64,000 nt of DNA from Saprospiraceae bacterium (GTDB lineage Bacteria; Bacteroidota; Bacteroidia; Chitinophagales; Saprospiraceae): NCBI GenBank assembly GCA_036479115.1, contig JAZGFD010000085.1, positions 11,218 to 75,217 of the forward strand, given 5' to 3'. Of the stretch, positions 4,394 to 63,528 are shown in pieces; within the stretch, counting starts at the first letter, position 1, and the number at the start of each line of letters is the position of its first letter. The translations under genes and the position numbers were made by a program. The notes under the pieces are model-generated. The model ran no database searches. It worked only from the letters and a program-made list of their open reading frames with translations, and was not told the origin of the DNA.

Positions 4394-4440
4394 AATGTTT
4401 TATTGTTTTATTGTTCAATCTTCTGTGGCCCCAACTCCCT

Positions 4441-6876
4441 TTACTCACTCCTCAGCGACTCCACAGGATTAGCAACAGCTGCCTTTATACTCTGAAAACT
4501 TATAGTCACAAATGCAATAAGAAGAGCTATTAAGCCGCCGATCATAAAAGTAGAGAAGTCCATATCTATCCGGAATACGAAATTAGCCAGCCATTTATCC
4601 ATTAACCACCACGATATAGGGACGGCTAGGATTAGAGCTATAATTACAAGTTTTATAAAGTCTTTGGAAAGCAAGCCTACTACTTCTGTTACACTGGCTC
4701 CGAGTACTTTTCTTATTCCTATTTCCTTATATCTCTGTTCTGCCATATATGCTGATAATGCAAACAGGCCTAGACAAGCAACGAATATAGCGAGTAGTGC
4801 AAAAGTTGTAAATATGCTTCTGATACGGCTCACATTGTCATACATCTTGGCATATGACTCGTCCATAAATTTATATCGGAAAGCAAGATTAGGAGCAAAT
4901 TTATTCCACTGCTCTTCTATTGACCCAAGTAGTCGAGGTATGTTGTCAGTATTGATTTTGACAGATATGATGGAGGGACTTATCCCTTGAAAAAAGCATA
5001 GCGGGTATACTTTTTCTGTCAGAGATGTATAGTTAAAATTTTCAACGACTCCTATTACTTCATAAAGTGTACCATACCTTGATATGTTTTTACCAATTGG
5101 GTCTTCCAGATTAAGTCTCTCTACCATTTCTTCATTAATAATGGTAGTAAGATTATCAGAGGATTTATCTACATCAAAATTTCTGCCTTGCGTAAGTTTC
5201 ATTCCCAAGGTTTCGAGATAATCTTCATCAATGACCCATGACTGTGCACCAACTGTTTCATCCAGTTTTTCTCTGCCTTCATTTACAAATGAATTACCGT
5301 TTCTTTTAGTCCCTTCTAAAGGTAAGTAGTCACTTATAGTAGCATTCTTAACACCTGCCATTCCTTTAATTACATCTTTGAATGTCTGTACATCATCTGT
5401 GAGCATATTTGTGCCATATAATTGGATTACTTGCTCTTTTTCGAATCCTATTTTAGTATTTAGGATATAATTGAGTTGCTTGTTAATAAAGAATGTGCAT
5501 ACTATCAAAACAATAGAAATACCAAATTGAAATACTACTAATCCACTGCGTATGGAGCCAGATCGATTATGAGATGTCAATACACCTTTGAGTGTATTAA
5601 TAGGTCTGAATCCGGATAGATAGAAAGCTGGATACAACCCTGCAAGAACTCCTATAACAACAGCTGTCGAAATTAATCCGATGATAAAAAATGGCTCAGA
5701 AAAAGGAATCTCTAATTGTATACCTGTCATGCCCCTAAAAAAAGGAATCAACGCTTCTGATAACCCTACACCTGCAATAAATGCAATAAATGTGATAAAA
5801 ATAGATTCTGATAGAAACTGAATGATTAAGCCCTGCCTACTAGAGCCTATGACTTTCCTAAGTCCTACTTCTTTTGCTCTACTTGCAGATTTAGCTGTAG
5901 AGAGATTGATAAAATTGATACAGGCTATGACAAGTATGAATAAGGCAATTAGTCCAAATATCCAAATGATCTTGATATCATTTCTGGAACTATTCTGATG
6001 TGGAATATCAGCTGATCTAAGGTTAATATCTCTGATGGGTTGCATCATCAATTTGGCTGAATTTTCTATATTTTCTCCTTGTGTATAGCCTCCTGCTAAA
6101 AGTGCAGGCTTCATATATCCTAATATCAATTTATCTGATAATATAGGTTCAAAAGAAGTTATATCCGTTTTAGGAGACATAGCGAAATAGATGTAGTAAT
6201 TGTTCTGTAACCATCGGGTCTGTTCTCCTTCTCCAAACTCTACATCCGTAAGTGTGATCAAGAAGTCATAACCAAGATGAGAAGTACTTGGAAAATCTTC
6301 CATTACACCGCTTATTATAAATGGATCATCCATTCCTCCATTGAGGTACATGGTTTTGCCCATCGGGTTGTTGTCCTTAAAGTACTTTTTAGAAACCTTT
6401 TCAGATATGACTATTGTCTTAGGTGCTGTCAAGGCAGAGGAAGATTTCCCATATACCATAGGAATACTAAATATGTCTAATATAGACTGATCAGCATAGG
6501 TAAACCTTTCTTCGTGATGCTGTTCTGGGTCTCCTTCAAAACTTATCTCATTGCTCCCTGCTCTATAAAAAAGAGGATTGTCCATTAATCTGCCAGAAAT
6601 TTTTATCTCATCAAAATCCTTATCCAGGGTGGATGCTGTATTGGCTGAAAAATGGATGCTACGACCTGAAAAGTTATCATCATTGTATAGTGTTGTAAGC
6701 CTATATATGTTTTCACCATTAGGGACATGCTTATCGTAACTTATCTCATGTAGAATGTATACAGAGATTAGTATACAAGCTGCTATTCCTATACTGAGGC
6801 CTGTAAGATTGATAAAAGAAAAGATTTTATTCTTTTGTAGATTTCTTAATCCGACTTTTATGTAATTCTTTATCAT
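4441..6876 (-). CDS. MacB-type ABC transporter permease (double FtsX domain, 811 aa)
   Basis: N-terminus MIKNYIKVGLRNL. Loop motifs RAKEVGLRKVIGSS and YKEIGIRKVLGAS. C-terminus ANPVESLRSE. Confidence 0.9.
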   Translation of the reverse strand: MIKNYIKVGLRNLQKNKIFSFINLTGLSIGIAACILISVYILHEISYDKHVPNGENIYRLTTLYNDDNFSGRSIHFSANTASTLDKDFDEIKISGRLMDNPLFYRAGSNEISFEGDPEQHHEERFTYADQSILDIFSIPMVYGKSSSALTAPKTIVISEKVSKKYFKDNNPMGKTMYLNGGMDDPFIISGVMEDFPSTSHLGYDFLITLTDVEFGEGEQTRWLQNNYYIYFAMSPKTDITSFEPILSDKLILGYMKPALLAGGYTQGENIENSAKLMMQPIRDINLRSADIPHQNSSRNDIKIIWIFGLIALFILVIACINFINLSTAKSASRAKEVGLRKVIGSSRQGLIIQFLSESIFITFIAFIAGVGLSEALIPFFRGMTGIQLEIPFSEPFFIIGLISTAVVIGVLAGLYPAFYLSGFRPINTLKGVLTSHNRSGSIRSGLVVFQFGISIVLIVCTFFINKQLNYILNTKIGFEKEQVIQLYGTNMLTDDVQTFKDVIKGMAGVKNATISDYLPLEGTKRNGNSFVNEGREKLDETVGAQSWVIDEDYLETLGMKLTQGRNFDVDKSSDNLTTIINEEMVERLNLEDPIGKNISRYGTLYEVIGVVENFNYTSLTEKVYPLCFFQGISPSIISVKINTDNIPRLLGSIEEQWNKFAPNLAFRYKFMDESYAKMYDNVSRIRSIFTTFALLAIFVACLGLFALSAYMAEQRYKEIGIRKVLGASVTEVVGLLSKDFIKLVIIALILAVPISWWLMDKWLANFVFRIDMDFSTFMIGGLIALLIAFVTISFQSIKAAVANPVESLRSE

Positions 6877-6942
6877 GATGATTTATTTATCAATGTTCGT
6901 TTTATTGAGTTTGTGAGGCCAGAATCTAGTCTTCCCATTTCC

Positions 6943-9315
6943 TTACTCGCTCCTCAAACTCTCCACAGGATTGACCAAAGCTGTTTTCATACTCTGTAGG
7001 CCTACAGTCAGCAATCCTACAACTACTGTAATTAACCCACACAATGCAAATACCCACCACGCCAGATCAGTGCGATAAGCAAAATCTTCCATCCATATAC
7101 TGGAGATGTAGTAACCGATGGGCACGGCAATAACTAATGCTAGCCCTGACAGTTTTAAGAAATCAAAAGAAAGCATACCCATAATCTCAGTAATGCTAGC
7201 ACCCAGTACTTTTCTGATTCCGATCTCTCGTGCACGTCGTTCTACATTAAAAACAGTAAACCCAAAAAGCCCCATGAGCGATATAAAAAGTGTCAATATC
7301 GTGGCGTACATCAGGGTTGTACCCATTCGGTTTTGTTCTGCATATTGAGCGGCAAAATCTTCATCAAGAAAAGAAAATCGCATGGGATGTTGAGGCTCCA
7401 CTTGACTCCACAATTTTCTAATAGAGGCAATAGAAGCTGATATGTCTGTAGTCGAGAGTTTAATGCCTACATAATATGACCTTCGAGGGTAACCACCTAT
7501 GATGAGCGGTCTTATAGTTTTAGAAAGTCCTTTGAAATGGAAGTTTTTCATTACTCCTACTATTCTCCCATAACTGTCATCACTTGTGAATTTTATTCTG
7601 GCTTCTGTTGGGTTTTTAATGTTATTCAAGTTAATAAATTCTTCATTTACCACATAGTTATCTATAGTGTCTGCAGAAATCGAAGAAGACAGAAAACGTC
7701 CCTCTTTCATCTCAATATTGAGGGTTTTGATATAATCAGGGTCTGAGAAAATGACATTGGGAGATACAGACTCAGGTCTGCCTTCTATGAGCATGCCCCA
7801 ATCTGGAATAAAATGCCCGGGAAACCTTGAAGCTGTTGTCACGCTGCTTACGCCCGGAATATTCTCAAACCTAGACTTCATATTGACAATCTTACGTGTA
7901 GTTTCGTCTGTATTTATGGGTATTATTATTACTTGATCAGCATGAAATCCCAATTCGTGATCGGTCATAAAATTTACTTGTCGATAAATAAATGCCATTA
8001 CGATAAGCAGAATGATAGTTACTGAAAACTGACCAGTTACCAGTATTTTTCTAAATAGGCCCTTACCACCCTGGTTTAAATAATTAGATTTTATTGCAGT
8101 AGATGGGCTAAAAGCGGAAATTACTAGAGCTGGATATATACCTGCTAACAGCCCTGTACAAAGTGCTACGCCCAATATAGAAATCACTAATCCCAATGAA
8201 TGGGCATCAAATAAGATCAATTCTCGATCAATTATATTATTAAAAAATGGCATCAGAAGCATAGCTATTATAATGGCAAGTGCTGCCGCTAAAAATGACT
8301 GCAATAATGCCTCGGTGATAAACTGAATAGTCAATCCTAAACGGCCTTCTCCCATTACTTTCTTAATGCCGACTTCCTTAGCCCTTTGGCTGGCACGTGC
8401 TGTAGCTAGATTGATATAATTAATGATTGCGACTCCCAAAACTAAAATACCGATCAGAATAAATATGTATATACTACGCATACTACCCCCAGAAGAGGCC
8501 AGAAAGTTAATATTGGCAGATTGTAAATGTACCTCATTGAGTGGCTGAAATTTCCATTCTGCAAAGTCTTCTGATGTAGGCGTATAATTAATAGATAAAA
8601 ACTCTGCTGACATCAATGCCGAGATACTTTCAGTAAGTTTCTCTTCTAGATTGGGTATTGATATATTGGGCTTGAGACGTGCATAGGTAGCTCGATTATT
8701 ACCCGTCCATGAAGAAGAATACCATTGAAAACGAGTAAATATGTCAGAAACGATGTGGGTATTCTTCCCTTCTAAGTCAAAGACGCCGGAGATAGTATAA
8801 TCTTGATCTCCCTGAAATTGTACTACTTGACCTACAGAGTTGCTTGTTCCAAATAGGTTTTCTGACAGCTCTTTAGAAATGACCATACTATTGGGTTTAT
8901 TTAGCGCTATAGCTGGGCTGCCATGTAGGAAAGGTATGGTAAGCACTTGAAAAAAAGTACTGTCTACAGATGCTGTATTTTCTACATATAGTTTTTTACC
9001 TTGATGTTCTATGAGTTCTTCTCCACCTGGAGCAAACCCCGTGGCTACATCTACTTCTGGAAAGTCTGTGGACAATTTTTGGGCTAGTAATGAGGGTGTC
9101 CAGACAGTATTAGATTCTGCCGACCAGTGGCGATGTAAGCGGTATGTTCTCTCACTATCCTCCATCCAATTATCATAGCTTAACTCATTGTTGACAAAAG
9201 TAAAAACGAATATGGCCACGGCTATACCAAAAGATAAACCCAACAAATTAATAATAGAATAGACCTTATTATTGATCAATTGTCGATATCCGATTTTTAA
9301 ATTATTTAGTAACAT
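6943..9315 (-). CDS. MacB-type ABC transporter permease (double FtsX domain, 790 aa)
   Basis: N-terminus MLLNNLKIGYRQL. Loop motifs RAKEVGIKKVMGEG and AREIGIRKVLGAS. C-terminus VNPVESLRSE. Confidence 0.9.
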   Translation of the reverse strand: MLLNNLKIGYRQLINNKVYSIINLLGLSFGIAVAIFVFTFVNNELSYDNWMEDSERTYRLHRHWSAESNTVWTPSLLAQKLSTDFPEVDVATGFAPGGEELIEHQGKKLYVENTASVDSTFFQVLTIPFLHGSPAIALNKPNSMVISKELSENLFGTSNSVGQVVQFQGDQDYTISGVFDLEGKNTHIVSDIFTRFQWYSSSWTGNNRATYARLKPNISIPNLEEKLTESISALMSAEFLSINYTPTSEDFAEWKFQPLNEVHLQSANINFLASSGGSMRSIYIFILIGILVLGVAIINYINLATARASQRAKEVGIKKVMGEGRLGLTIQFITEALLQSFLAAALAIIIAMLLMPFFNNIIDRELILFDAHSLGLVISILGVALCTGLLAGIYPALVISAFSPSTAIKSNYLNQGGKGLFRKILVTGQFSVTIILLIVMAFIYRQVNFMTDHELGFHADQVIIIPINTDETTRKIVNMKSRFENIPGVSSVTTASRFPGHFIPDWGMLIEGRPESVSPNVIFSDPDYIKTLNIEMKEGRFLSSSISADTIDNYVVNEEFINLNNIKNPTEARIKFTSDDSYGRIVGVMKNFHFKGLSKTIRPLIIGGYPRRSYYVGIKLSTTDISASIASIRKLWSQVEPQHPMRFSFLDEDFAAQYAEQNRMGTTLMYATILTLFISLMGLFGFTVFNVERRAREIGIRKVLGASITEIMGMLSFDFLKLSGLALVIAVPIGYYISSIWMEDFAYRTDLAWWVFALCGLITVVVGLLTVGLQSMKTALVNPVESLRSE

Positions 9316-13445: not shown

Positions 13446-13463
13446 ATATAAGTTTAAGTTATT

Positions 13464-13623
13464 GTAACTACTCAGGTGGAGCCAATTTTGGTTTAAAACA
13501 AATTCCTTTTCGACCACATTTCAGCTTTTTTTTCGGCAGCACTCTGAGATGCTTCAAAAAATGATCTCTATCCGAAAAAAAATAACAATTTTTAATCTCA
13601 ATAGCGCCCACCTGAGCGGTTAC
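13464..13623 (+). mobile_element. Family-1 MITE-like element (subtype 1a)
   Basis: Runs from GTAACTACTCAGGTGGAGCCAATTTTGG to GCGCCCACCTGAGCGGTTAC, with terminal inverted repeats. It sits 19 bp upstream of the adaptor start codon. Confidence 0.8.
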
Positions 13624-13745
13624 AGTTTTTTCTATTAATAAACATTACTAACATTATATCTACAGCCATGCCAAAAACTACAAACGCTTAGTATCTGTGA
13701 TATACGCATATAGTTATTTTATATGTGTTAAATATATGTACGATT

Positions 13746-14225: not shown

Positions 14226-14696
14226 ATGACAAAAAAATCCTATAAAAAAGATGACGATAAAAGTGACATTCGTACTCGTCTTGCTGAGCCTTTAGTAGCA
14301 TATAATGCCAGTACTGGCACATCATTCGATCCTTTAGAAATGATAAAGTCTACAAGGGCTGGTATCGAGATGTCAACAATTCTAGGGTTATCAAAAAAAC
14401 TTTTACTTACTACAACAGAATTATCGAAAATCCTACACATTTCCTTAAGAACATTGCAGAGGTATTCATCTTCTACGGTTTTAAATTCTGATATTTCGTC
14501 CAAAGCTTTGCAGTTAGAAAAGTTGCACAATTTTGGCTTTGATGTATTTGGTGATTCAACTTCTTTTGGAGAGTGGTTACATATCAAGGTGCCAGCTTTG
14601 GGAGGTGAGCGCCCTCTTGATTATTTGGATACTCCATTTGGTTTCCTTCTTATAGAGCAGATGTTAGGTCGCATTGAGCACGGCATTTTTGCATAA
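14226..14696 (+). CDS. Xre-family antitoxin with C-terminal DUF2384/MbcA-ParS-type domain
   Basis: HTH segment ELSKILHISLRTLQRY. C-terminal FGEWLHIKVPALGGERPLDYLDTPFGFLLIEQMLGRIEHGIFA is typical of antitoxins paired with RES toxins. It sits 12-18 bp upstream of the RES gene. Confidence 0.8.
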   Translation: MTKKSYKKDDDKSDIRTRLAEPLVAYNASTGTSFDPLEMIKSTRAGIEMSTILGLSKKLLLTTTELSKILHISLRTLQRYSSSTVLNSDISSKALQLEKLHNFGFDVFGDSTSFGEWLHIKVPALGGERPLDYLDTPFGFLLIEQMLGRIEHGIFA

Positions 14697-14714
14697 TGAT
14701 CTACAGTATTGTCT

Positions 14715-15176
14715 ATGAATGTTTTTAGAATTTCCAGATCAAAATACATTGAGGATTTATCAGGATATGGTGCCAAAATCTATGGTGGTAGATGGAATCG
14801 GCCCGGTGTACCAGTCCTGTATACAAGTCAGGCAAGGTCACTGGCAATGCTCGAATTAATAGTTCATTTTACTTCAAAAGAGGCTTTTCGACGGCAATAT
14901 AAATTTGCATGTCTGTGGATAGATCCCAAATTTATTGTTGATGTAGAAGAAGATATTCATTCGGTGGATTTACGACTCCCCAACAATGAACATTTATGGA
15001 AAATAACTGACAAGTTCTTTATCGATAAAAAAGAATTATGTATAAAAGTGCCGAGTGTATTAATCCCTAATGAGTTCAATTATTTAATCAATCCGATTCA
15101 TCCTTATTTTCAAAATGTGAAACTTCAAGGATTAGAAAATGCTATTGTTGATAAGAGGTATTTTGCGGTTAATTAA
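14715..15176 (+). CDS. RES-domain toxin (MbcT/ParT-like NAD+-targeting enzyme family)
   Basis: GGRWNRPGVPVLYTS supplies the R, SLAMLE the E, and KVPSVLIPNEFNYLINP the S of the RES signature. The start is taken at the ATG at 14715; the track ORF begins at a TTG at 14709. Confidence 0.8.
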   Translation: MNVFRISRSKYIEDLSGYGAKIYGGRWNRPGVPVLYTSQARSLAMLELIVHFTSKEAFRRQYKFACLWIDPKFIVDVEEDIHSVDLRLPNNEHLWKITDKFFIDKKELCIKVPSVLIPNEFNYLINPIHPYFQNVKLQGLENAIVDKRYFAVN

Positions 15177-15182
15177 TAAACA

Positions 15183-15340
15183 GTAACTACTCAAGTGGAG
15201 TCAATTTTGGATAAAAAAATATTTTTTCTACTATTTTTCACCTATTTTTTTTACAATAGCTCTGCTATGCCATAAAAATGAGCTTTATCTGGCAAAATAA
15301 TAACAAATTTTTATCGCAAAAGCGATCACCTGTGTATTAC
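15183..15340 (+). mobile_element. Family-1 MITE-like element (subtype 1a) with 8-bp duplication AATAAACA
   Basis: Termini GTAACTACTCAAGTGGAG and GATCACCTGTGTATTAC. AATAAACA occurs at 15175-82 and again at 15342-49. Confidence 0.8.
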
Positions 15341-15366
15341 CAATAAACATTTGGAATTAAATTTGT

Positions 15367-15607
15367 GGTAAATATTCAGATAGTTTCAAATTAGGCTAAG
15401 AAAAAATGCTCTTATATCACTATACTATGTCAAAGTATGTCTGAAATTGAATATGTGGCACCATAATCGAGATTCACTAACACATATAATGAGTTGGTAA
15501 TAGCGCTGCTATGAATACAAAAAAAAATATGTCAAGCAATAAGATAGCAATTTTTTACCTTCCTGTTTGGCAGACAGATTTCAAAAGCACACCACCGAAG
15601 TAGTTAC
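15367..15607 (+). mobile_element. Family-1 MITE-like element (subtype 1b) carrying one 55-bp module
   Basis: Degenerate left end GTAAATATTCAGATAGTTTCAAATTAGG. Right end GCACACCACCGAAGTAGTTAC. The interior is collinear with the copies at 42983 and 46859. Confidence 0.7.
15444..15498 (+). repeat. 55-bp module (single copy) inside a family-1b element
   Basis: AAATTGAATATGTGGCACCATAATCGAGATTCACTAACACATATAATGAGTTGGT matches the consensus AAATCGAAGATGTGGCGACAYAATCGAGATTCACTAACCAATAA. Confidence 0.7.
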
Positions 15608-15639
15608 AATTTGTGAAAACCTAAAATGAACATTGGGCA

Positions 15640-18377: not shown

Positions 18378-18538
18378 TGAATATGGGCAATAAAGGTAAT
18401 AACTCAGCAAGTATCAATTTTGATAAAAATGCTCTTTTATAACCTTGAATCGAAAATTTGTGTAAAGGGCGGTTATCAAGTAGTTTTTTTTACAAAAAAA
18501 ATTACTGTAAACTATTATTTTACAACTGTTTAATTATT

Positions 18539-18701
18539 GGGAATTACTGAGGAACAGTCAATTTTAGATGAAAAAAGTTCTTTTTCTACCATATTTCAGC
18601 TATTTTTTTCGGCACAACTTTACTATGCCTCAAAAAATGAACATTACCAGAAAAAAAAATAACAAATTTTTATCTCAAAGGCGCCCATCTGGAGTTGTTA
18701 C
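18539..18701 (+). mobile_element. Family-1 MITE-like element (subtype 1a), flanked by TAATTATT / TTATTATT
   Basis: Termini GGGAATTACTGAGGAACAGTCAATTTTAG and GCGCCCATCTGGAGTTGTTAC. The flanking 8-mers at 18531-38 and 18702-09 match 7/8. Confidence 0.75.
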
Positions 18702-18768
18702 TTATTATTTAGTAAGTATCAGTAATTTATGAGTTGTCTCTAAATTATTGATGTATATTGAGTCCACT

Positions 18769-18943
18769 CGAAAAACTCGCAAAATCAACAAAGTTGACTT
18801 CGACAAGATCTGCATAAAACTTTTGGCGAACTTTACATTTTTCTCAAACCGCTGATACTAAGGGATCACCGAATCTCAAAAAATGCAAATTTGATCCGAA
18901 GCGATTCTTTTTCTGAAAAATGTTAGTTTCCAGCGTAGATTTA
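18769..18943 (+). mobile_element. Family-2 MITE-like element with 4-bp duplication ATAT
   Basis: Termini TGAGTCCACTCGAAAA and degenerate CCAGCGTAGATTTA. Conserved core TTTTGGCGAACTTTACATTTTTCTCAAACCGCTGATACT..ATCACCGAATCTCAAAAAATGCAAATT. ATAT occurs at 18765-68 and 18944-47. Confidence 0.75.
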
Positions 18944-18990
18944 ATATTCAATTATTAGATATTTTTATTAAATGTTAAAAATTCTTTATC

Positions 18991-20250: not shown

Positions 20251-20293
20251 TATCGCTCATTCCCCTCAAAGGCTATTAAATTGTGTCTGAACG

Positions 20294-20453
20294 GTAACTA
20301 CTCAGGTGGAGCCAATTTTGGACACTAAAAGTTCTTTTTCTACTATTGGAGCTTTTTTTCGCGGTTGCTCTGCTATACCTCAAAAAATGAGCTTTATCTG
20401 GTAAAAAATATCACTTTTTTTACATCAAAAGTGCCCCCCTCCTGTGTAGTTAG
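20294..20453 (+). mobile_element. Family-1 MITE-like element (subtype 1a) nested in the left end of a family-2 element
   Basis: Termini GTAACTACTCAGGTGGAGCCAATTTTGG and GTGCCCCCCTCCTGTGTAGTTAG. It is flanked by TGTCTGAACG (20284-93) and TGTCTGATCG (20454-63). Confidence 0.75.
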
Positions 20454-20612
20454 TGTCTGATCGAAAACTCATCAAAATTAGAAATAGTTTTTTTGGCGAT
20501 ATTTAATTTTTTTTCAACTCGCTGATACTCCGGCATCACAGAATATTAAAAAATGATAATATCATCTAAAATAATTAATTTTTGAAAATTATCTGTTTTC
20601 AGAGCGGACTCA
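20454..20612 (+). mobile_element. Family-2 MITE-like element (divergent copy)
   Basis: Degenerate left end TGTCTGATCGAAAACTC. Core TTTTTGGCGATATTTAATTTTTTTTCAACTCGCTGATACTCCGGCATCAC. Right end CAGAGCGGACTCA. Confidence 0.65.
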
Positions 20613-20832
20613 AAGTTCAACAAAAGTCTTTTTTCATTTTAAGATATTTCGGAGTCAAATTAAAATTATTCATTCACTTAAAATCACTATAGAGTCATCA
20701 AAGAGTATCCTTTAAATAATATTTGTGTGATACAAAATCAAGTCTTTTTTACCCCCTCTAATTAAAAAGCCAATCTATATTTGGCTTATTCTCAATTAAG
20801 TGTAATATTTAGCCGAATAAAAGGTAAAATAC

Positions 20833-34292: not shown

Positions 34293-34371
34293 ATTGATAA
34301 TTAATATCTACAATAGTCACGAGGCTTTACGTATTTATAAATGACCTCATTTTTATATGATCTTGTAACAT

Positions 34372-34578
34372 TGAGTCCACTCCGAAAATTTACAAAATCA
34401 AAAAGTTAACTTTTACAAGCTCTGTATAAATACTTCGACAATCTCTGCAGAAAGCTTTTGGAGAACTTTACATTTTTCTCAATTCGCTGATACTCCGTCA
34501 TCACCGAATCTCCAAAAATGCAAATTCCACCCAAAACGATTCTTTTTCTGAAAAATGTTAGATCCCTGAGTAGACTCA
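34372..34578 (+). mobile_element. Family-2 MITE-like element (with ~23-bp internal duplication)
   Basis: Termini TGAGTCCACTCCGAAAA and CTGAGTAGACTCA. The core is identical in layout to the copies at 18769 and 38554. Confidence 0.75.
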
Positions 34579-34600
34579 GTATTTTAATTGTAAAACTCGG

Positions 34601-34759
34601 AAGTACTCAATATTGTATCCATCAAAGAAAGGAGGAAGGCTTTTAGCAGAATAGGAAATGGCAACGCCCTAGGTAAGAGAAGTGATTGTTGTGATTTGGC
34701 GACATTTTTGATTAAAAATGATGACATACCTTTCGGGTTACACAAGATATTGAGTACTT
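34601..34759. repeat. 159-bp segment bounded by a perfect 13-bp inverted repeat AAGTACTCAATAT
   Basis: The arms are at 34601-34613 and, reverse-complemented, at 34747-34759. The interior shares the TTGGCGACATTTTT core motif with family 2. It may be a third MITE-like type. Confidence 0.4.
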
Positions 34760-34858
34760 ATTGAAACTCTGCATAACTGCAATACATGTCACTTTATAAC
34801 ACAAAAATACACGTGCTTTGTAGCCAAAGATGATTACAACGCTATTGTTACAAATATT

Positions 34859-35018
34859 GTAACTACTGGGCTGTAGCCAATTTTGGATAAAAAAGTATTT
34901 TTTTACGATGATTTCAGCTATTTTTTTTGCCTTAACTTTGCTATGCTTTTAAAAATGAGCTTTATCTGTTAAAAAAATAACAAATTTTTATATCAAAGGC
35001 GCCCACCTGGGTAGTTAC
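34859..35018 (+). mobile_element. Family-1 MITE-like element (subtype 1a) with perfect 8-bp duplication CAAATATT
   Basis: Termini GTAACTACTGGGCTGTAGCCAATTTTGG and GCGCCCACCTGGGTAGTTAC. CAAATATT occurs at 34851-58 and 35019-26. Confidence 0.85.
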
Positions 35019-35092
35019 CAAATATTAAATGAATGAGAATAAACTGAACGTAATGATAGTGAATGAAATATTATTGTATTAACTTGTAATCA

Positions 35093-37087: not shown

Positions 37088-37663
37088 ATGGAATTGCTCC
37101 GTAAAAAATTATTATCGTATTGTTACTTGTCTGATGACGAGTTAGATCAATTAATGGGTTCTTTTGTGAAGGTGAATTTACAGCCAGGAGAAAGGTTGTT
37201 TTCTGAAGGCGATGTGGTGAAGTCACTTTATTTCATTTTGTCTGGAGTATTGGTCTATACTAGTGTTGTAGATGGTGAAACATCGATTATTGAATTTTAT
37301 TCGGATGGCGAAATGCATACTGATTTTTACAGTTACTCTAAAGAAAAACCTACTGTATGTTCTGCCCAATCAGAAAAGGCGACTTTAGTAATGGCTGTCT
37401 CAAAAGAAAAGCTCGAAATGCTGTATGATTCTTCAATGTCGTTCCAAAGGTTTGGCAGAAAATTGGCAGAAAATTATCTTCTTCATATTCTTAGAAGGAA
37501 TTATGAAAAACAAATTTTTAGCAATGAAGAACGATATAGAAGATTCCTTGACAAACGGTACAAACTAAGCCAGAGGGTACCACAATATAAAATAGCTTCT
37601 TACCTTAACATCACACCTGTAGGACTTTCAAAAATTAGAAAGAGAATGTTTAATAAAAGGTGA
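37088..37663 (+). CDS. Crp/Fnr-family transcriptional regulator (cNMP-binding domain + C-terminal HTH)
   Basis: Beta-roll segment GERLFSEGDVVKSLYFILSGVL. C-terminal QYKIASYLNITPVGLSKIRKR. The start is taken at the ATG at 37088; the track ORF begins at a TTG at 37049. Confidence 0.75.
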   Translation: MELLRKKLLSYCYLSDDELDQLMGSFVKVNLQPGERLFSEGDVVKSLYFILSGVLVYTSVVDGETSIIEFYSDGEMHTDFYSYSKEKPTVCSAQSEKATLVMAVSKEKLEMLYDSSMSFQRFGRKLAENYLLHILRRNYEKQIFSNEERYRRFLDKRYKLSQRVPQYKIASYLNITPVGLSKIRKRMFNKR

Positions 37664-37785
37664 CGTTCTTTTGGCGACATTTTTTATTCAACTCGCTGAA
37701 ACTCAGGCATCACTAAATATCAAAAAACTAAATTCTCAGCCAAAATATTTTATTTCATAAACTTTGACAGTTTCCGTTCAGACAC
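37664..37785 (+). repeat. 5'-truncated family-2 element
   Basis: It begins in the core, TTCTTTTGGCGACATTTTTTATTCAACTCGCTGAAACTCAGGCATCAC, and ends with a degenerate right terminus, GTTTCCGTTCAGACAC. It abuts the Crp gene stop codon. Confidence 0.6.
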
Positions 37786-37941
37786 TACGTAAATAATTCT
37801 TGATTTTACTTTATATCTTGCTTACCAATTTTATGCAAAAAAAATGTTTTTGCCGCGATCAGGTAATTTGCCTAGAACAAACGGAAATGCGAAGGTTATA
37901 AGCATATTTATAGGATATTTTTTATACTAAAATCAATGTGA

Positions 37942-38463: not shown

Positions 38464-38553
38464 AAAAATGACGCTTTTACCAAACCGTATCTATGTGCGG
38501 TATTCTTTAACAATGAGCGGATTGAAAACAGCAAGAATAGAAGATGCCAAACT

Positions 38554-38738
38554 TGAGTTCACTCCAAAAGGTAACAAAACCAAAAAAAGTTACTTCGTCA
38601 AGCTCTGCATAAAGCTTTTGGCGCACTTAATATTTTTCTCAACTCGCTGATAATCAGGTATCACCGAGTCTCCAAAAATGCAAATTTCATCCGAAACAAT
38701 TCTTTTGCAGAAAAATGTTAGTTTTCTGAGTAGACTCA
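38554..38738 (+). mobile_element. Family-2 MITE-like element with perfect 4-bp duplication AACT
   Basis: Termini TGAGTTCACTCCAAAAGG and TTTTCTGAGTAGACTCA. AACT occurs at 38550-53 and 38739-42. Confidence 0.8.
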
Positions 38739-38748
38739 AACTTGATCT

Positions 38749-38901
38749 TTAGCCACAGCCAATTACTTTTCCCATTCCATAAAAAATAGCTATCCAAACC
38801 AGCCCTTTAATGAAAAAGAAAGCAAATGCTCCCCAGCCTAATCTCTTGAACCAAGTTTTTTTAGACTCTTTTTCAGGATGTTGATTTTCTAATCCTTCCA
38901 T
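38749..38901 (-). CDS. Possible 50-aa small membrane protein (below the ORF-track cutoff)
   Basis: Reverse strand reads MEGLENQHPEKESKKTWFKRLGWGAFAFFFIKGLVWIAIFYGMGKVIGCG*. The ATG at 38901 overlaps the last 13 nt of the upstream gene. It contains one clear hydrophobic helix. Confidence 0.35.
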   Translation of the reverse strand: MEGLENQHPEKESKKTWFKRLGWGAFAFFFIKGLVWIAIFYGMGKVIGCG

Positions 38902-42912: not shown

Positions 42913-42982
42913 AGTTAAGATTTCTATAAAGACGTAAATATGTGTCATTCTACCTATTCAAAGGTAGATTTTAACATTAGTT

Positions 42983-43200
42983 GTAACTACTCAGGTGATA
43001 TCAAATTTGGTTAAAAAAACTCTTTTATCACTATACTTCGGCAATTTATGTCTCTAATTCGAAGATGTGGTGATATAAGTCGATATTCACTAACAAATAA
43101 AATACATTATTTATAGCGCTGCTATTAATACAAAAATAGCCTGTGTTTAGCAATAAAATAGCACCTTTTTATCTCAAAAGCACACCACTTGAATAGTTGA
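42983..43200 (+). mobile_element. Family-1 MITE-like element (subtype 1b, one 55-bp module) with perfect 8-bp duplication CATTAGTT
   Basis: Termini GTAACTACTCAGGTGATATCAAATTTGG and GCACACCACTTGAATAGTTGA. CATTAGTT occurs at 42975-82 and 43201-08. Confidence 0.8.
43066..43120 (+). repeat. 55-bp module (single, divergent copy)
   Basis: AATTCGAAGATGTGGTGATATAAGTCGATATTCACTAACAAATAAAATACATTA. Confidence 0.6.
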
Positions 43201-43345
43201 CATTAGTTAAATTCTTAGAAAATGTGGCTTTTTTGAAAATACTTATCCTTTCTCATCGCTTTTGAGTTTTAAGCTATTTAAACAATATTTTTTTTTAATC
43301 AAGAGAAAATTTTAGTTCTTAGGAGTGTTATGGTTTGAAAAATCC

Positions 43346-43636
43346 GTAACCACTCAGGTGGATCATTTTGAGGCCTGACTGTCAATGAGGTTGGCACAAA
43401 ATTGTTATTTTTTACCAGATAAAATTCATTTGAGATGCAATAACAGCGCTATTCCTATCCTGTTTTATTGATTTGTGAATCTCGATTATGTCGCCATATC
43501 TTCGATTTACTAACTCATTTTATTGGTTAGTGAATCTCGATTATGTCGCCATATCTTCGATTTACATCGAGAAAAGCTGAAATACGGTAGAAAAAGAACT
43601 TTTTTTAGCTAAAACTGGCTCCTTCTGAGCAACAAC
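43346..43636 (-). mobile_element. Family-1 MITE-like element (subtype 1b, two tandem 55-bp modules), inverted relative to 42983-43200
   Basis: Termini GTAACCACTCAGGTGGATCATTTTGAGG and GGCTCCTTCTGAGCAACAAC. The flanking 8-mers AAAAATCC (43338-45) and AAAATTCC (43637-44) match 7/8. Confidence 0.8.
43454..43563 (-). repeat. Two tandem 55-bp modules
   Basis: GTGAATCTCGATTATGTCGCCATATCTTCGATTTA occurs at 43475 and again at 43530, an exact 55-bp period. The two copies are identical over this core. Confidence 0.85.
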
Positions 43637-43893
43637 AAAATTCCACTCCTGATATTAAGGAAAGGAGCAGATAAAAAACCGCTAATTCAGAAGATCAATG
43701 GCTTTCAAATAAATTAACTACATGTTTTTAAACAACTTCTGATTTCAAAACACTTGCTCCAAGCCTAAGAACTCTTTTTATTTTCAGCATATTGTATGGA
43801 CTAAAATTAATATAGCCTTTTTACACCCAATTGCTTCCTACTGCGTTATTAAGATGTAAACGAAATTTTTGGAAGTAAGAAATATATTTAGTT

Positions 43894-46824: not shown

Positions 46825-46858
46825 GAATTAATAAGCTATAAAACCGAATGAAATAAAA

Positions 46859-47021
46859 GGGACTACTTCAGGTGGTATCAATTCTGGATAAAAAAAGCTC
46901 TTTTAGCACTATACTGCTGCTATTTGTATTTTAATACTGCTGCTATTAAGACATAAATGAGCCTTGTCTAGCAATAAAATAGCAATTTTTCATCTCAAAA
47001 GCACACCACCTGAGTAATTAC
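46859..47021 (+). mobile_element. Family-1 MITE-like element (subtype 1b, no 55-bp module) with perfect 8-bp duplication AAATAAAA
   Basis: Termini GGGACTACTTCAGGTGGTATCAATTCTGG and GCACACCACCTGAGTAATTAC. AAATAAAA occurs at 46851-58 and 47022-29. It fills the whole spacer between two gene ends. Confidence 0.8.
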
Positions 47022-47029
47022 AAATAAAA

Positions 47030-50347: not shown

Positions 50348-50543
50348 TCCACAAAACTAATTTTTTTATGAATGGCCAATAATAAAAGAGCAATTTTTCT
50401 CTAATGAGTGACCGATGATAAACTGGGTGTCATTCTAAATGTAGAATAAAGCCATTGATGGTATGATATGTTGCAAAATACCACCTGACTTCTTTGCGAA
50501 AACGACAAATTGAAGTACACCCGATAAACTTAATAATTAAGCA

Positions 50544-50874
50544 TGAGTCCTACTCTGGAAACCTACATTATTCATAAAAAGAGTTGTTTTGGATGAAATT
50601 TGCATTTTTGGAGATTGGGTGATGCCTGAGTATCAGCGAGTTGAACAAATCGAAGATGTGGGGACACAATCGAGATTCACTAACCAATAAGGTAATTTAG
50701 TAAATCGAAGATGTGGCGACACAATCGAGATTCACTAACCAATAAGATAAGTTAGTAAATTGAAGATGCGGCGACGCAATCGAGATTCATCAATGCATTG
50801 CAATGAGTTGATAAAAATATAAAGTTCGCCAAAAGATTTTTTTTTGGAATTTGTAAGTTTTCGGAATAGACACA
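50544..50874 (-). mobile_element. Family-2 MITE-like element (reverse orientation) expanded by three tandem 55-bp modules
   Basis: Left terminus TGAGTCCTACTCTGGAAACC. Core in reverse complement: AATTTGCATTTTTGGAGATTGGGTGATGCCTGAGTATCAGCGAGTTGA. Three modules follow, then AAAGTTCGCCAAAAG...CGGAATAGACACA. The flanking tetramers AGCA and AGTA match 3/4. Confidence 0.75.
50647..50811 (+). repeat. Three tandem 55-bp modules
   Basis: AAATCGAAGATG starts at 50647 and 50702, and AAATTGAAGATG at 50757, an exact 55-bp period. Copies 1 and 2 are nearly identical. Copy 3 diverges in its 3' half. Confidence 0.85.
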
Positions 50875-51063
50875 AGTATATCTTCAGGATTAATTTAGCT
50901 TTATTGTATCTTAGGAATGGTAAAAAAATAACATACCGTTTTTAGCCTGATTTTTTACTTTCATTCAGCGTTTCTAAAATCCTCATTATGCTAAGGCATA
51001 ACTCCAGTTTTAGCGCCTTATCTAAAGTCAAAATCTCTAGCCTAAAATTCGAAACTTATTTAT

Positions 51064-51248
51064 TTACCATTCCTTAGGTGGAGCCAATTTTGAGTAAAAA
51101 AGTTCTTTCACTACTATATTTCAATTATTTTTTTTTATCATAGTTCTGCTATGTCTCAAAAAATGAGCTTTTTTTGACAAATAACTATCATTATTTTTAC
51201 CTGCTTGATTGTCAGGCAAACCTCAAAAGCACCCATCTGAGTGGTTTT
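51064..51248 (+). mobile_element. Family-1 MITE-like element with degenerate termini and a small internal hairpin insertion
   Basis: TACCATTCCTTAGGTGGAGCCAATTTTGAG...CTCAAAAAATGAGC...CCTGCTTGATTGTCAGGCAAACCTCAAAAGCACCCATCTGAGTGGTTTT. It creates a spurious 21-codon N-terminal extension on the next ORF. Confidence 0.65.
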
Positions 51249-51271
51249 TCTTCAATTTAAAATTTCATAAC

Positions 51272-52139: not shown

Positions 52140-52440
52140 TTTTTAGAGCTCTGTCAAGGATAAGTTGAGTGGCACATTTTGGCATTTTTCGAGTCTGCAC
52201 TTCGATAAAAATATTTGCAATAGCTTTGCTACAGAGCGTTTAGGTGCATTTTAAATTGTCGCTTTTCTTACTCATTCCCATGTGTAAGAGAACCTCGATT
52301 GTGTTGCCACATCTTCGCTTTGTCACAATTTTTGTTGACAAAAATTTCGCCAAAGCTAGCTGTATCTCAATATTTAGCTAACGTATTGTTACCTCTCTGA
52401 GGAAATTAACGTCAATCTGAAATGCACCCGATCGTTTTTA
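52140..52440. repeat. Mosaic of degenerate repeat fragments including one reverse-oriented 55-bp module core
   Basis: GAACCTCGATTGTGTTGCCACATCTTCGCTTT (about 52290-52321) is the module core in reverse complement. Family-2-like fragments are present (TTGAGTGGCAC, TTTTTCGAGTCTGCAC, TTTCGCCAAAG). There is a 9-bp inverted pair GGTGCATTT at 52243-51 and 52420-28. Confidence 0.4.
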
Positions 52441-58449: not shown

Positions 58450-59517
58450 ATGAAAATTGTTGCCCAAAGCGCCTCTGATATTGCACTTCTAACCAATGGT
58501 AGAATAGAAGGGGATTCGGATAGAAAAATATGTAATATTTGTAAAATTAATGAACCACAGCCCAATTCTCTATGCTTTTTAGCGAATCTTAAGTATGAAA
58601 AATTCCTCTATTCTAATCATTCGATGACAGTATTAGTGGAAGAAGGATTTATTCCAAAATTAACATCCAAGAATACATTGATATATGTCAATGATGTTTA
58701 TGCGAAATTTTCAAAAGTTTTAAAATTGTATTCAAAAAATGAAAATTTAGTATTTGAAATTGATAAACTTTCTGCTGTATCTAAAAATACTGTGATAGGC
58801 AAACGTGTAAATATTGGAAAGTTTACCGTCGTGCAAGAAGGCTCAGAAATAGGTGACGGGAGTAATATTATGGATCAAGTCTATATAGGGAAAAATGTAA
58901 TAATTGGGAATAATGTACTTATTTATCCTGGTGTGAAAATCTATGATCTAACGGTCATAGGAGATGATGTAGTTATTCATTCCAATGCTGTGATAGGAAG
59001 TGACGGTTTTGGATTTTCTGTCAAAGAAAAGGAATATGATAAAATTCCACAAATAGGAAATGTCATTATAGAAGGCAAAGTAGAAATTGGTAGCTGTACT
59101 ACTATTGATAGGGCCACCATTGGTTCCACATTAATAAAAAAAGGCGCTAAACTTGATAATCTTATCCAAATAGGACACAATGTAGTGATAGGAGAACATG
59201 CTGTTATTGCTGCCCAGACTGGGATTGCAGGCAGTACTGAGATTGGGGCTGGGAGTATGCTCGGAGGACAAGTAGGCATAGCTGGCCACTTAAAAATTGC
59301 TCCTTATTCTCAGATACAAGCAAAATCTGGAGTAGCATCCTCTATTGTAGATTCTGGTAAAAAATGGTATGGATATCCTATTCTTCCATATACAGATTAT
59401 CTAAAGTCATATTCTGTTTTTAAAATACTACCCAGGCTACTAAAAAGAATAGTAGAGATAGAAGAAAAACTAAAGAATGTATCTTTTAAAAATGAAAGAA
59501 ATAATAGTGATTTCTGA
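58450..59517 (+). CDS. lpxD: UDP-3-O-acylglucosamine N-acyltransferase
   Basis: N-terminal LpxD domain, then a long left-handed beta-helix with hexapeptide repeats (IGDGSNI, IGKNVIIGNNVLI, IGDDVVIHSNAVIGSDGFGF, IGHNVVIGEHAVIAAQTGIAGS). Confidence 0.9.
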   Translation: MKIVAQSASDIALLTNGRIEGDSDRKICNICKINEPQPNSLCFLANLKYEKFLYSNHSMTVLVEEGFIPKLTSKNTLIYVNDVYAKFSKVLKLYSKNENLVFEIDKLSAVSKNTVIGKRVNIGKFTVVQEGSEIGDGSNIMDQVYIGKNVIIGNNVLIYPGVKIYDLTVIGDDVVIHSNAVIGSDGFGFSVKEKEYDKIPQIGNVIIEGKVEIGSCTTIDRATIGSTLIKKGAKLDNLIQIGHNVVIGEHAVIAAQTGIAGSTEIGAGSMLGGQVGIAGHLKIAPYSQIQAKSGVASSIVDSGKKWYGYPILPYTDYLKSYSVFKILPRLLKRIVEIEEKLKNVSFKNERNNSDF

Positions 59518-59659
59518 AGTAGTGTGATTTTGAGAAGAAAAATGCTATTATTATTTTAATAAGCACATTTATTAATTGCAGGGTTATTAAAATTAATAAC
59601 AGAAGTATAGCGAGAAAAGAGCTTTTTCAATCCAAAATTGATACCATCTGAGGAGTTAT
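59508..59659 (-). mobile_element. Family-1 MITE-like element (subtype 1b, reverse orientation, degenerate end overlapping the lpxD stop)
   Basis: GTGATTTCTGAAGTAGTGTGATTTTGAGAAG...CCAAAATTGATACCATCTGAGGAGTTAT. It is collinear with the reverse complement of 46859-47021. Confidence 0.65.
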
Positions 59660-59672
59660 AATAATATATTAT

Positions 59673-59834
59673 TGAGCCCACTCCGGAAACACACAAAATT
59701 AAAAAAGTTTCTTTTGGCGATCTTTATATTTTTTTCAATTAGCTGATACTCAGGCATCACCGAATCTCAATAAATGTAAATCACATCCAAAACAACTCAT
59801 TTTGTGAAAAATGTCTGTTACCGGAGTGGACTCA
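59673..59834 (+). mobile_element. Family-2 MITE-like element with perfect 4-bp duplication TTAT and the best-preserved termini
   Basis: Termini TGAGCCCACTCCGGAAAC and TTACCGGAGTGGACTCA, matching 16 of 18 nt as inverted repeats (positions 1-4 and 6-15 form uninterrupted perfect runs). TTAT occurs at 59669-72 and 59835-38. Confidence 0.85.
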
Positions 59835-59870
59835 TTATTGAAAAATAATATGCTGATGCAAGGAGAAAAA

Positions 59871-63217: not shown

Positions 63218-63528
63218 TAGAATTTGGTGTGACTACAATAGTGTGCGCTTATACGGTAAAAAATTGTAATATGTTTATCAGTTAAATCTCATTAGAGATG
63301 GAAAATGAAGATATGAAGACATAAATTGTATGTACAGCAATGTAAAGTAGATTCGATTATAAATGAACGAATAAATGAGTGGTCAATTAAGATGCATTAA
63401 CACATGAAATAAGTTAATAATAGCAGGGTAAATGCATTGATAATAGCTGACATATGGTAGAAAAATTTTTTACAAAAAATAGGCCTCTAAGGGTCGTTAC
63501 GAAAATGATAAAAAACAATTTTGACACT

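Follow-up and report, generated by a model that had tools for sequence, protein, structure and literature searches.

Within a 64,000-nucleotide stretch of DNA from an uncultured marine Saprospiraceae bacterium (contig JAZGFD010000085.1, positions 11,218 to 75,217; hereafter the window), a 55-bp module is repeated three times head to tail inside a MITE (miniature inverted-repeat transposable element), and it recurs inside other MITEs of two families, here called F1 and F2. With moderate confidence, we read this 55-bp unit as an optional internal cassette of modular, non-autonomous MITEs, one that spreads with its host elements and was captured once by F2. The evidence comes from the anatomy of the module, from its distribution and insertion sites in the two families, from the empty sites of F2 elements in other Bacteroidota, and from a difference in copy number between assemblies of the same locus. 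We sampled the window together with ~44 kb of additional DNA from the same organism (~108 kb in total), reached via orthologues of relatives' proteins and by extensions of the window contig; the genome as a whole probably measures several Mb.

The 55-bp module and its host elements

Tandem Repeats Finder detects the triple array at 50647-50789 (period 55, 2.6 copies, 93% matches, score 244), and on direct sequence reading the third and more diverged copy, C, runs to 50811. Both analyses bear out the exact 55-bp, head-to-tail repetition that an earlier reading of the sequence alone (the original prediction) had described, and the sequence agrees with its observation that GAGTTGA brackets the array on both sides (50639-50645 and 50805-50811). 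A 44-nt consensus pattern matches the window four times and a looser 28-nt pattern six times, versus zero matches expected in each case; the looser pattern covers six of the eight window copies. A covariance model for the module was built from all copies.

The tandem pair formed by copies D and E (Table 1) was also found where predicted, on the minus strand. The heads of D and E are identical (0 differences), and their tails differ at seven positions. Of two single copies reported earlier, F stands as given, whereas G, first placed at 43066-43120, had to be moved to 43056-43111; a supposed core fragment at 52290-52321 is in fact part of a full-length but diverged copy, H, in a decayed F1 element. 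A census of the sampled DNA for free-standing copies found none among 11 module loci, nine of which lie in F1 and two in F2. The covariance model also revealed an extra pair at 63323-63418, consisting of an old, degenerate copy and a partial one that is followed by the F1 motif AATAGC. Copies E, G, M and the one at 63385 are visibly decaying.

The module contains stop codons in all frames and no open reading frame (ORF) longer than 46 amino acids, and promoter and terminator scans found no such site inside it. Rfam 15 gave no match at gathering thresholds across the window, and only noise at E<=5 around both arrays. The degenerate 28-nt pattern has no match in ~185,000 reference genomes, JGI metagenomes or IMG/VR viral contigs. 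Several known repeat types were considered and set aside: a CRISPR array, because the units abut without spacers and the entire 55 bp is repeated; repetitive extragenic palindromic (REP) sequences, whether as bacterial interspersed mosaic elements (BIMEs) or with REP-associated tyrosine transposases (RAYTs), because there is no GTAG/CGTC tag, the stems are AT-rich and the copies are direct; and an IS200/IS605-type element, because the left flanks vary by context and the hairpins span positions 2-31 and 33-55 of the 55. Group II intron domain V and small ribozymes were weighed on anatomy and rejected for want of their defining features or of Rfam matches. An origin of the module from the F2 arms, suggested by common 7-mers (GAGATTC, TCGCCA), was dropped because the similarity found by nhmmer was not significant.

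Copies of F1 and F2 were located by nhmmer with family hidden Markov models (HMMs), and both families match their own HMM on both strands. F1 elements (~165 bp) end in the terminal inverted repeats GTAACTACTCAGGTGG / CCACCTGAGTAGTTAC, and F2 elements (~185-230 bp) in TGAGTCYACTC.GGAAAC (TGAGTCYACTCNGGAAAC) / GTTTYCGGAGTGGACTCA (CC.GAGTRGACTCA). Target-site duplications, read from the F1 and F2 alignments and imperfect in some copies, are AT-rich and ~8 bp long for F1 (CAAATATT at 34856, AAATAAAA at 46856, ATTAGTT at 42980, TATTATT at 59504) and ~4 bp long for F2 (AGTT at 38532, ATAA at 59651); the duplication around the F1 element at 42980-43203, the host of copy G, is intact. The elements of both families are 160-330 bp long and non-coding, with short ORFs only, and all are intergenic; the window holds 13 copies of F1 and seven of F2. 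F2 is predicted to fold as one long hairpin (z = -5.8). Judged by these sequence features, F1 and F2 are best described as true MITEs, and the differences in terminal repeats and duplication length agree with the earlier claim that the two families are unrelated. No transposase gene is among the genes annotated in the sampled DNA, in which no search for a parent insertion sequence (IS) was made. F1 arms are of a 1a or a 1b type. By alignment, the arms around the D-E pair are of the 1a type and not, as first assigned, 1b; the 1b copy said to lack the module, at 46856-47023, does lack it.

Other optional segments occur in these elements. Some F1 copies carry a ~21-nt CTGCC...GGCAG hairpin (e.g. 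TCTGCCTGTATGGCAGACAG) near their right end, and three F2 copies carry a ~27-nt segment, GCTTTATGCAGAGCTTGTCGAAGTAAC, after CGCCAAAAG; in the F2 copy at 34350 the latter segment is partly duplicated in tandem (CAGAGATTGTCGAAGTA... / CAGAGCTTGTAAAAGTTA...). Whether an element has these segments is independent of the 55-bp module, so that both families are mosaics in which several cassettes are optional. A GC-rich palindromic insert, instead of the ~27-bp segment, is present in an F2 copy from Lewinellaceae (L022 ~4160-4190).

The module comprises a conserved 34-nt head and a 21-nt tail, each predicted to fold as a hairpin. Hairpin 1 (positions 2-31) would consist of a lower stem (AAUC/GAUU), an internal loop, an upper stem (GAUGUG/CAC-A-AUC) and a tetraloop, and hairpin 2 (positions 33-55) of the stem ACUAAC/GUUAGU with an 11-14-nt loop. 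In single-sequence folding both hairpins form in most copies, albeit weakly (-9 to -14 kcal/mol, z -1 to -3). Across 14 copies, which are related sequences and are also those from which the structure was derived, 94.2% of cells are paired, versus 18-34% in controls with the partners shifted by one, two or three columns; both sides have changed in six pairs, and none of 500 shuffles reaches the pairing or the double-change value. The upper stem of hairpin 1 occurs as GUG/CAC, AUG/CAU and GCG/CGC with G.U intermediates, and in the copy at 63323 as ACA/UGU, with all three pairs double-changed and the loop still GCAA. In hairpin 2, both F2-type copies read AUCAA/UUGAU, and copy H reads UCUUAC/GUAAGA, a compensatory change. 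Twelve of the 15 first-hairpin loops read are of the GNRA type (GCGA, GGGA, GCAA, GUGA). Non-Watson-Crick cells are G.U in 14 cases and A.C in three, which favours a structure on the strand as written. Overall, this modelling is suggestive of maintained pairing in both hairpins. In the predicted centroid fold of a one-module F2 copy, the F2 arms pair with each other and the module forms separate apical stem-loops. Folding of the module independently of the host's terminal stem would allow a host to tolerate zero, one or several copies.

History of the cassette and competing explanations

In F1, all nine module loci lie directly 5' of AATAGYGCTGCT and in one orientation relative to the element, within arms of either type. 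The two F2 loci, the triple array and a single copy at L045 4191-4246, occupy the same site with identical junctions (...TTGA-AC-AAATCG and ...GTTGA-TAAAAAT); aligned with six empty F2 copies, the array is located between ...CAGCGAGTTGA and TAAAAATATAAAGTTCGCC. Across the sampled DNA, ~9 of ~20 recognisable F1 copies and 2 of 13 F2 copies carry the module. The two module-bearing F2 copies are mutual closest relatives (76% identity, versus at most 73% to others), and module variants follow the host subfamily. The variant GATATGG...CATAATC, for example, had been taken as private to the array at 43454, but it recurs in an unlinked copy at L045 3939-3996; since these are the two 1a-armed hosts, the AUG/CAU stem variant is a lineage marker and not one array's private variant. 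One site and one orientation per family fit a history in which each family acquired the module once and its copies then spread along with the host. The presence of the module in both families thus stands, whereas the repeated autonomous insertion proposed for it is not supported. The proposal of local amplification after arrival is likewise weakened, because the variant occurs elsewhere and because the internal tails of both arrays are near-identical while their terminal copies differ.

Comparison with F2 elements elsewhere clearly places the module as derived in that family. The F2 core pattern occurs at at least 30 loci in Bacteroidota metagenome-assembled genomes (MAGs), labelled Saprospiraceae, Cyclobacteriaceae, Roseivirgaceae, Prolixibacteraceae, Lewinellaceae, Bacteroidia and Bacteroidetes; one of these (L036) resembles a chance match and not an element. 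All of the F2 elements among the matches listed (~29) have the empty site TTGA-RAAAAT, and neither the HMM nor the covariance model finds the module at any of the loci listed. It is this empty site in F2 of at least five other Bacteroidota families that sets the direction of change. The original view of the module as an addition to its hosts therefore holds for F2 and is not established for F1. The F1 terminus pattern has no match in metagenome_contigs, F1 is not recognisable in the other MAG loci except for one weak match in L028, and the contigs of the nearest RecN relatives (76-77% identical, marine/Tara) hold no F1, F2 or module, so that those contigs give no F1 outgroup. Moreover, the most decayed F1 copies include several that bear the module (52150-52440, 63250-63500, L046 248-400), and empty F1 copies could thus be deletion derivatives.

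The same locus is present in NCBI GCA_044240345.1 (contig JAZHCG011083970.1, 75,968 bp; L049), in ENA ERZ25083849 (NODE_625; L001) and in Logan contigs of SRR17063066. The window reads A-B-C, and NODE_625 and JAZHCG011083970.1 both read A-B-C'-C, a difference of three versus four copies that agrees with the minisatellite-like behaviour originally proposed. In C', the head of C (GCG...CGC) is followed by the tail of B. The sequence of C' is what a single crossover out of register, or slippage, within the shared AATCGAGATTCA would be expected to produce; conversely, the window allele may be a deletion derivative of the four-copy allele. Besides this indel, the window and L001 differ by 2 SNPs over 21.6 kb. 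Directly next to the F1 element at 13461-13625, a 9-bp unit, AACATTACT, is repeated in tandem ~1.5 times in the window versus ~5.5 times in the NCBI contig, so the window is identical to neither public record. Indel differences among the assemblies fall in tandem repeats, with two or three point differences otherwise.

We propose that the cassette has long been part of an F1 subfamily, always 5' of AATAGYGCTGCT, and would have spread by ordinary MITE transposition; within F1, gain and loss of the cassette are both possible. F2 would have acquired it once via GAGTT microhomology, as the F2 sequence ...GCGAGTTGA resembles the cassette 3' end ...AATGAGTTAGT: illegitimate recombination or a template switch on 5-7 bp of homology may have placed modules between GAGTTGA copies. 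The native F2 sequence ...CAGCGAGTTGAAAAA resembles the module 3' end read on into the following copy (...AATGAGTTAGTAAATCG). On the right-hand side of the array, GAGTTGA is the homologue of the module tail in F1 copies (compare AATAAGTTGAT in copy I with AATAAGTTAGT in copy J), and thus the bracketing is not a clean target-site duplication. The module-bearing F2 variant would then have transposed to give two loci. Arrays may grow and shrink by slipped-strand mispairing or unequal crossover of neighbouring copies, and the short GAGTT homology is, as first suggested, a plausible driver of expansion. Both F2 hosts have the terminal tail 3' arm UUGAU with the matching change in the 5' arm (ACUAAC to AUCAAC). 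On the simplest account, two or more copies entered F2, contraction always leaves the first head and the last tail in place, and arrays re-expand; such a contraction would give the single F2-type copy at L045. As a rival account, arrays may have exchanged sequence with one another or gained fresh copies on the 5' side of those already present.

Several points weigh against a cassette carried passively by its hosts. Between the two F2 hosts the module is ~91% identical (5 differences over ~59 aligned columns), versus 76% for the arms. The internal tails of the two arrays, which sit in different families, differ at only 2-4 positions (A, B and C' versus D), versus 7-14 for terminal tails (12-14 for C versus A or B within one array). 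Neither the conservation of the F2 modules nor the likeness of internal tails is predicted by simple local slippage, and both hint at exchange, constraint or independent movement. The compensatory changes imply that the hairpins are maintained, which a purely passive cassette does not explain; templated correction in quasi-palindromes could give such changes without selection. Beyond the ~108 kb, the genome could hold free-standing copies, a third family of hosts or some larger parent element. Finally, the 3-versus-4 difference could be an assembler decision and not a population polymorphism, since all assemblies are short-read metagenome assemblies at ~8-10x coverage. We regard the specific claim that the arrays are real but the difference is an artefact, produced by differing traversals of a de Bruijn-graph cycle, as quite improbable. 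Such an artefact could account for the difference in copy number, though not for the existence of the arrays. It is in keeping with the contig coverage of ~8.5-9.5x, with window/public indels that fall in tandem repeats (the 55-bp unit and the 9-bp repeat at ~13640), and with the four-copy allele, which passes through the head of C, then the tail of B and again the head of C, a cycle in the graph. However, the ENA and NCBI records both show four copies; the C' junction k-mers (GACGCAATCGAGATTCACT) are in no other copy, so that reads containing the C' junction must exist; and the copies carry distinguishing variants, by which three- and four-copy paths would be separable with 150-nt reads.

A more active role for the module can be read from some of the same data. 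It might be a tiny hairpin mobile element that targets MITE centres, is moved in trans by an HUH/Y1-type or other enzyme, and builds head-to-tail arrays by inserting beside resident copies. Such an element would have the discrete boundaries that the module shows in three contexts (F1 1a, F1 1b and F2) and the hairpins, with covariation, that extend to the unit ends; in both arrays an older, diverged terminal copy is preceded on its 5' side by near-identical copies that look newest, and the module is better conserved than the surrounding F2 arms. As the F2 GAGTTGA resembles the module 3' end, an element that inserts 3' of its own end would account both for the tandem arrays and for the site in F2. 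We nevertheless consider this explanation unlikely. There is a single site per host family and no free-standing copy in ~108 kb, the left flanks (GATGT, GTCTG, TCTCT, ATCTC, TTGAAC) have no common target motif, and the module has neither terminal inverted repeats nor an unambiguous target-site duplication. Because its hairpins are flush with its ends, guide and cleavage sequences of the IS200/IS605 type would not fit; the genes annotated in the sampled DNA include no transposase, RAYT or TnpA gene, and plain unequal crossover accounts for C'. We likewise give little credence to the idea of the module as a structured RNA with a function, or as a cis-acting RNA- or protein-binding signal, borne by MITEs and under selection, whose copy number tunes the expression or stability of neighbouring transcripts. 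The covariation in both hairpins, the mostly GNRA-type loops of the first, the strand asymmetry (14 G.U versus 3 A.C cells, favouring the given strand) and the stem kept by the highly diverged copy at 63323 through three double changes are all consistent with it, and boxB modules are reported to modulate downstream gene expression (PMC3049150). Yet the module belongs to no Rfam family even at E<=5, and its pattern is absent from ~185,000 reference genomes, JGI metagenomes, IMG/VR and the RecN-region contigs of the nearest relatives. It has no promoter-like or terminator-like site, several copies are decaying, the folds are weak, and its position and orientation to genes are inconsistent, with copies in divergent, convergent and co-directional intergenic regions. 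A third and similarly doubtful variant is a two-hairpin RNA or single-stranded DNA cassette whose structure is under selection and which moves by itself or converts between MITE families; it would then be either a parasite of parasites that uses an unknown enzyme or a functional RNA borne by MITEs, with array length setting its dosage.

Genomic setting and coordinates

The window is ordinary chromosome, with genes for RecN, threonine synthase, heme biosynthesis and methylmalonyl-CoA mutase, a row of MacB-like ABC transporter genes and a protein with a type IX secretion system (T9SS) sorting domain. Its RecN is 100% identical to a protein annotated from a Saprospiraceae MAG, and the next-nearest RecN proteins, from marine (Tara) contigs, are 76-77% identical. 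Six consecutive paralogous genes for MacB_PCD/FtsX-type ABC transporter permeases of ~800 amino acids each lie at 2021-9315 of the window and at 12399-19880 of L041, with ABC ATPase genes adjoining the row. An Xre-like antitoxin and RES-domain toxin gene pair (14226-15176) is directly followed by two F1 MITEs (15180-15343 and ~15385-15615), the second of which bears the module. At window position 49208, a one-base difference turns TAT (Tyr) into TAG (stop) in the threonine synthase gene (thrC), whose product has 379 amino acids in the window versus 389 in both public assemblies. At an M20-peptidase locus, L044 (1-9597) and L045 (1-7041) are 99.93% identical downstream of the gene and wholly divergent upstream of it, with different neighbour genes, as the result of a rearrangement or of a chimeric join. 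L044 20924-21248 and L045 935-1264 share a repeat of 330 bp (92% identity).

MITEs of the two families cluster in long intergenic regions (Table 1): in the window, an F1 element lies within ~300 bp of five of the seven F2 copies, and three elements stand in a row at L045 3830-4524. F2 elements in other Bacteroidota span several orders, with full-length copies scoring up to ~140 bits against the window HMM, and some copies from outside Saprospiraceae are closer to the window copies than other Saprospiraceae copies are. These sequence relationships suggest that the F2 MITE or its parent IS has spread horizontally among marine Bacteroidota. The F2 pattern was not found in IMG/VR viral contigs.

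Table 1. Positions of module copies, host elements and accompanying segments (window coordinates unless another locus is named).
Feature	Position	Strand	Evidence or remark
Array of three 55-bp modules	50647-50811	+	Tandem Repeats Finder, sequence reading; covariance-model scores 73-83 bits
Units A, B, C of this array	50647-50701, 50702-50756, 50757-50811	+	
Tandem module pair D, E	43454-43563 (D 43509-43563, E 43454-43508)	-	Identical in assembly L001
Single module copy F	15444-15498	+	Inside F1 (1b) element ~15385-15615
Single diverged module copy G	43056-43111	+	Inside F1 (1b) element 42980-43203
Full-length diverged module copy H	52266-52321	-	In decayed F1 element ~52150-52440
Old degenerate module copy and partial copy	63323-63380, 63385-63418	+	Covariance model 28.9, 24.2 bits
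F2 host of the triple array	50544-50874	+	Reverse orientation versus other window F2 copies
F1 host of the double array, 1a-type arms	43343-43639	-	nhmmer and alignment; array at centre
Empty F2 copy	59651-59856	-	Alignment; ...CAGCTAATTGA/AAAAAATATAAAG join without module
Other empty F2 copies	18737-18965, 20440-20625, 34350-34600, 37613-37811, 38532-38757		nhmmer envelopes
Empty F1 (1b) copy	46856-47023	+	nhmmer and alignment; AAATAAAA target-site duplication
Other empty F1 copies (start positions)	13461, 15180, 18537, 20291, 32947, 34856, 51061, 59504		
F1 ~21-bp hairpin segment	51180-51205, 15565-15585, 43365-43385; L046 2405-2430; L045 ~3865-3885, ~4430-4450		
F2 ~27-bp segment	34390-34450 (minus-strand reading), 18780-18810, 38575-38605		
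F1/F2 clusters	18537-18965, 20291-20625, 34350-35020, 50523-51250, 59504-59856; L045 3830-4524		
9-bp tandem repeat	13634-13660; L041 720-760		36-bp difference

Comparison with known systems

The elements described here are a further, clear example at the sequence level, in an uncultured lineage of marine Bacteroidota, of modular MITEs whose internal cassette is hypervariable. The features they add are a cassette common to two unrelated MITE families, hairpin covariation, and a direction of change that is set in one of the families because its outgroup copies are empty. Cassettes of this sort are fast-evolving markers and also a source of breaks and errors in metagenome assemblies. If the compensatory changes reflect selection, the cassette is a candidate structured RNA or DNA signal; otherwise, it is a case of ordinary, though tidy, repeat-in-repeat evolution.

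The exact period of 55, the direct head-to-tail arrangement and the 3-versus-4 copy number with recombinant C' are those of a minisatellite or variable-number tandem repeat (VNTR). The enterobacterial repetitive intergenic consensus (ERIC), or intergenic repeat unit (IRU), is a palindromic intergenic repeat with short and long forms, the latter having ~70 bp inserted internally, as a discrete segment, at fixed sites; we know of no tandem amplification of that insert and of no sharing with a second repeat family. Mycobacterial interspersed repetitive units (MIRUs) are not embedded in MITEs, and they often contain small ORFs translationally coupled to flanking genes. The MIRU-VNTRs of Mycobacterium tuberculosis (Supply et al.) are dispersed intergenic units of 46-101 bp in direct tandem, with strain-polymorphic number. 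They resemble our arrays as polymorphic, direct tandem intergenic repeats and differ from them in that the 55-bp module has stops in all frames. The REP/BIME-RAYT systems and the palindrome-associated IS200/IS605 elements are similar in their short intergenic hairpin units, their mosaics and the conservation of structure over sequence. In contrast to them, the copies described here are direct, with no GTAG/CGTC tag and no conserved target tetranucleotide, the hairpins are flush with the unit ends, and no RAYT or TnpA gene is among the annotated genes.

The original prediction held that the module could be assigned to no known class, but precedents exist in the boxB modules of Streptococcus suis (PMC3049150) and the MITE minisatellites of Porphyromonas gingivalis (PMC4596501). 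BOX elements of Streptococcus pneumoniae and the BOX-type elements of S. suis have the layout boxA-boxB(n)-boxC (Croucher et al, 2011; PMC3049150), and their boxB arrays vary in length between strains, larger arrays varying more (PMC3049150). Like F1 and F2, they are composite, MITE-like intergenic repeats in which the end modules pair together (PMC3049150) and in which an internal module of ~45-55 nt is absent, single or repeated head to tail (0, 1, 2, 3 or 4 copies here). In both systems copy number differs at orthologous loci (here 3 versus 4, in short-read assemblies), the internal module folds alone and leaves the overall structure undisturbed by copy number, and elements cluster and nest in one another. 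Moreover, the A/C-bounded and E/F-bounded families of S. suis enclose one and the same boxB module (PMC3049150). The systems differ in phylum (Bacillota versus Bacteroidota), and we regard the resemblance as functional and claim no homology. They also differ in that the hosts described here are independent MITE families with other terminal repeats and duplication lengths, that the host F2 is widespread in Bacteroidota and module-free in the other-lineage matches listed, and that the arrays are short, with 1-4 copies.

In P. gingivalis, the MITE BrickBuilt contains a 23-nt minisatellite and MITE464/PgRS contains 41-nt repeats (Klein et al, 2015; PMC4596501), and promoter activity has been shown for these elements (PMC4596501). 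They differ from F1 and F2 in that the two Porphyromonas minisatellites are mutually unrelated, whereas one unit is common to both families here, and in that their units are shorter and their arrays make up the bulk of the element. The likeness is nonetheless close: these too are intergenic, species-restricted Bacteroidota MITEs with an internal minisatellite of strain-variable copy number, and two MITE types per genome carry tandem repeats. By analogy, the elements described here are of a known kind, the modular MITE with a hypervariable internal cassette, in close parallel to BOX and BrickBuilt.

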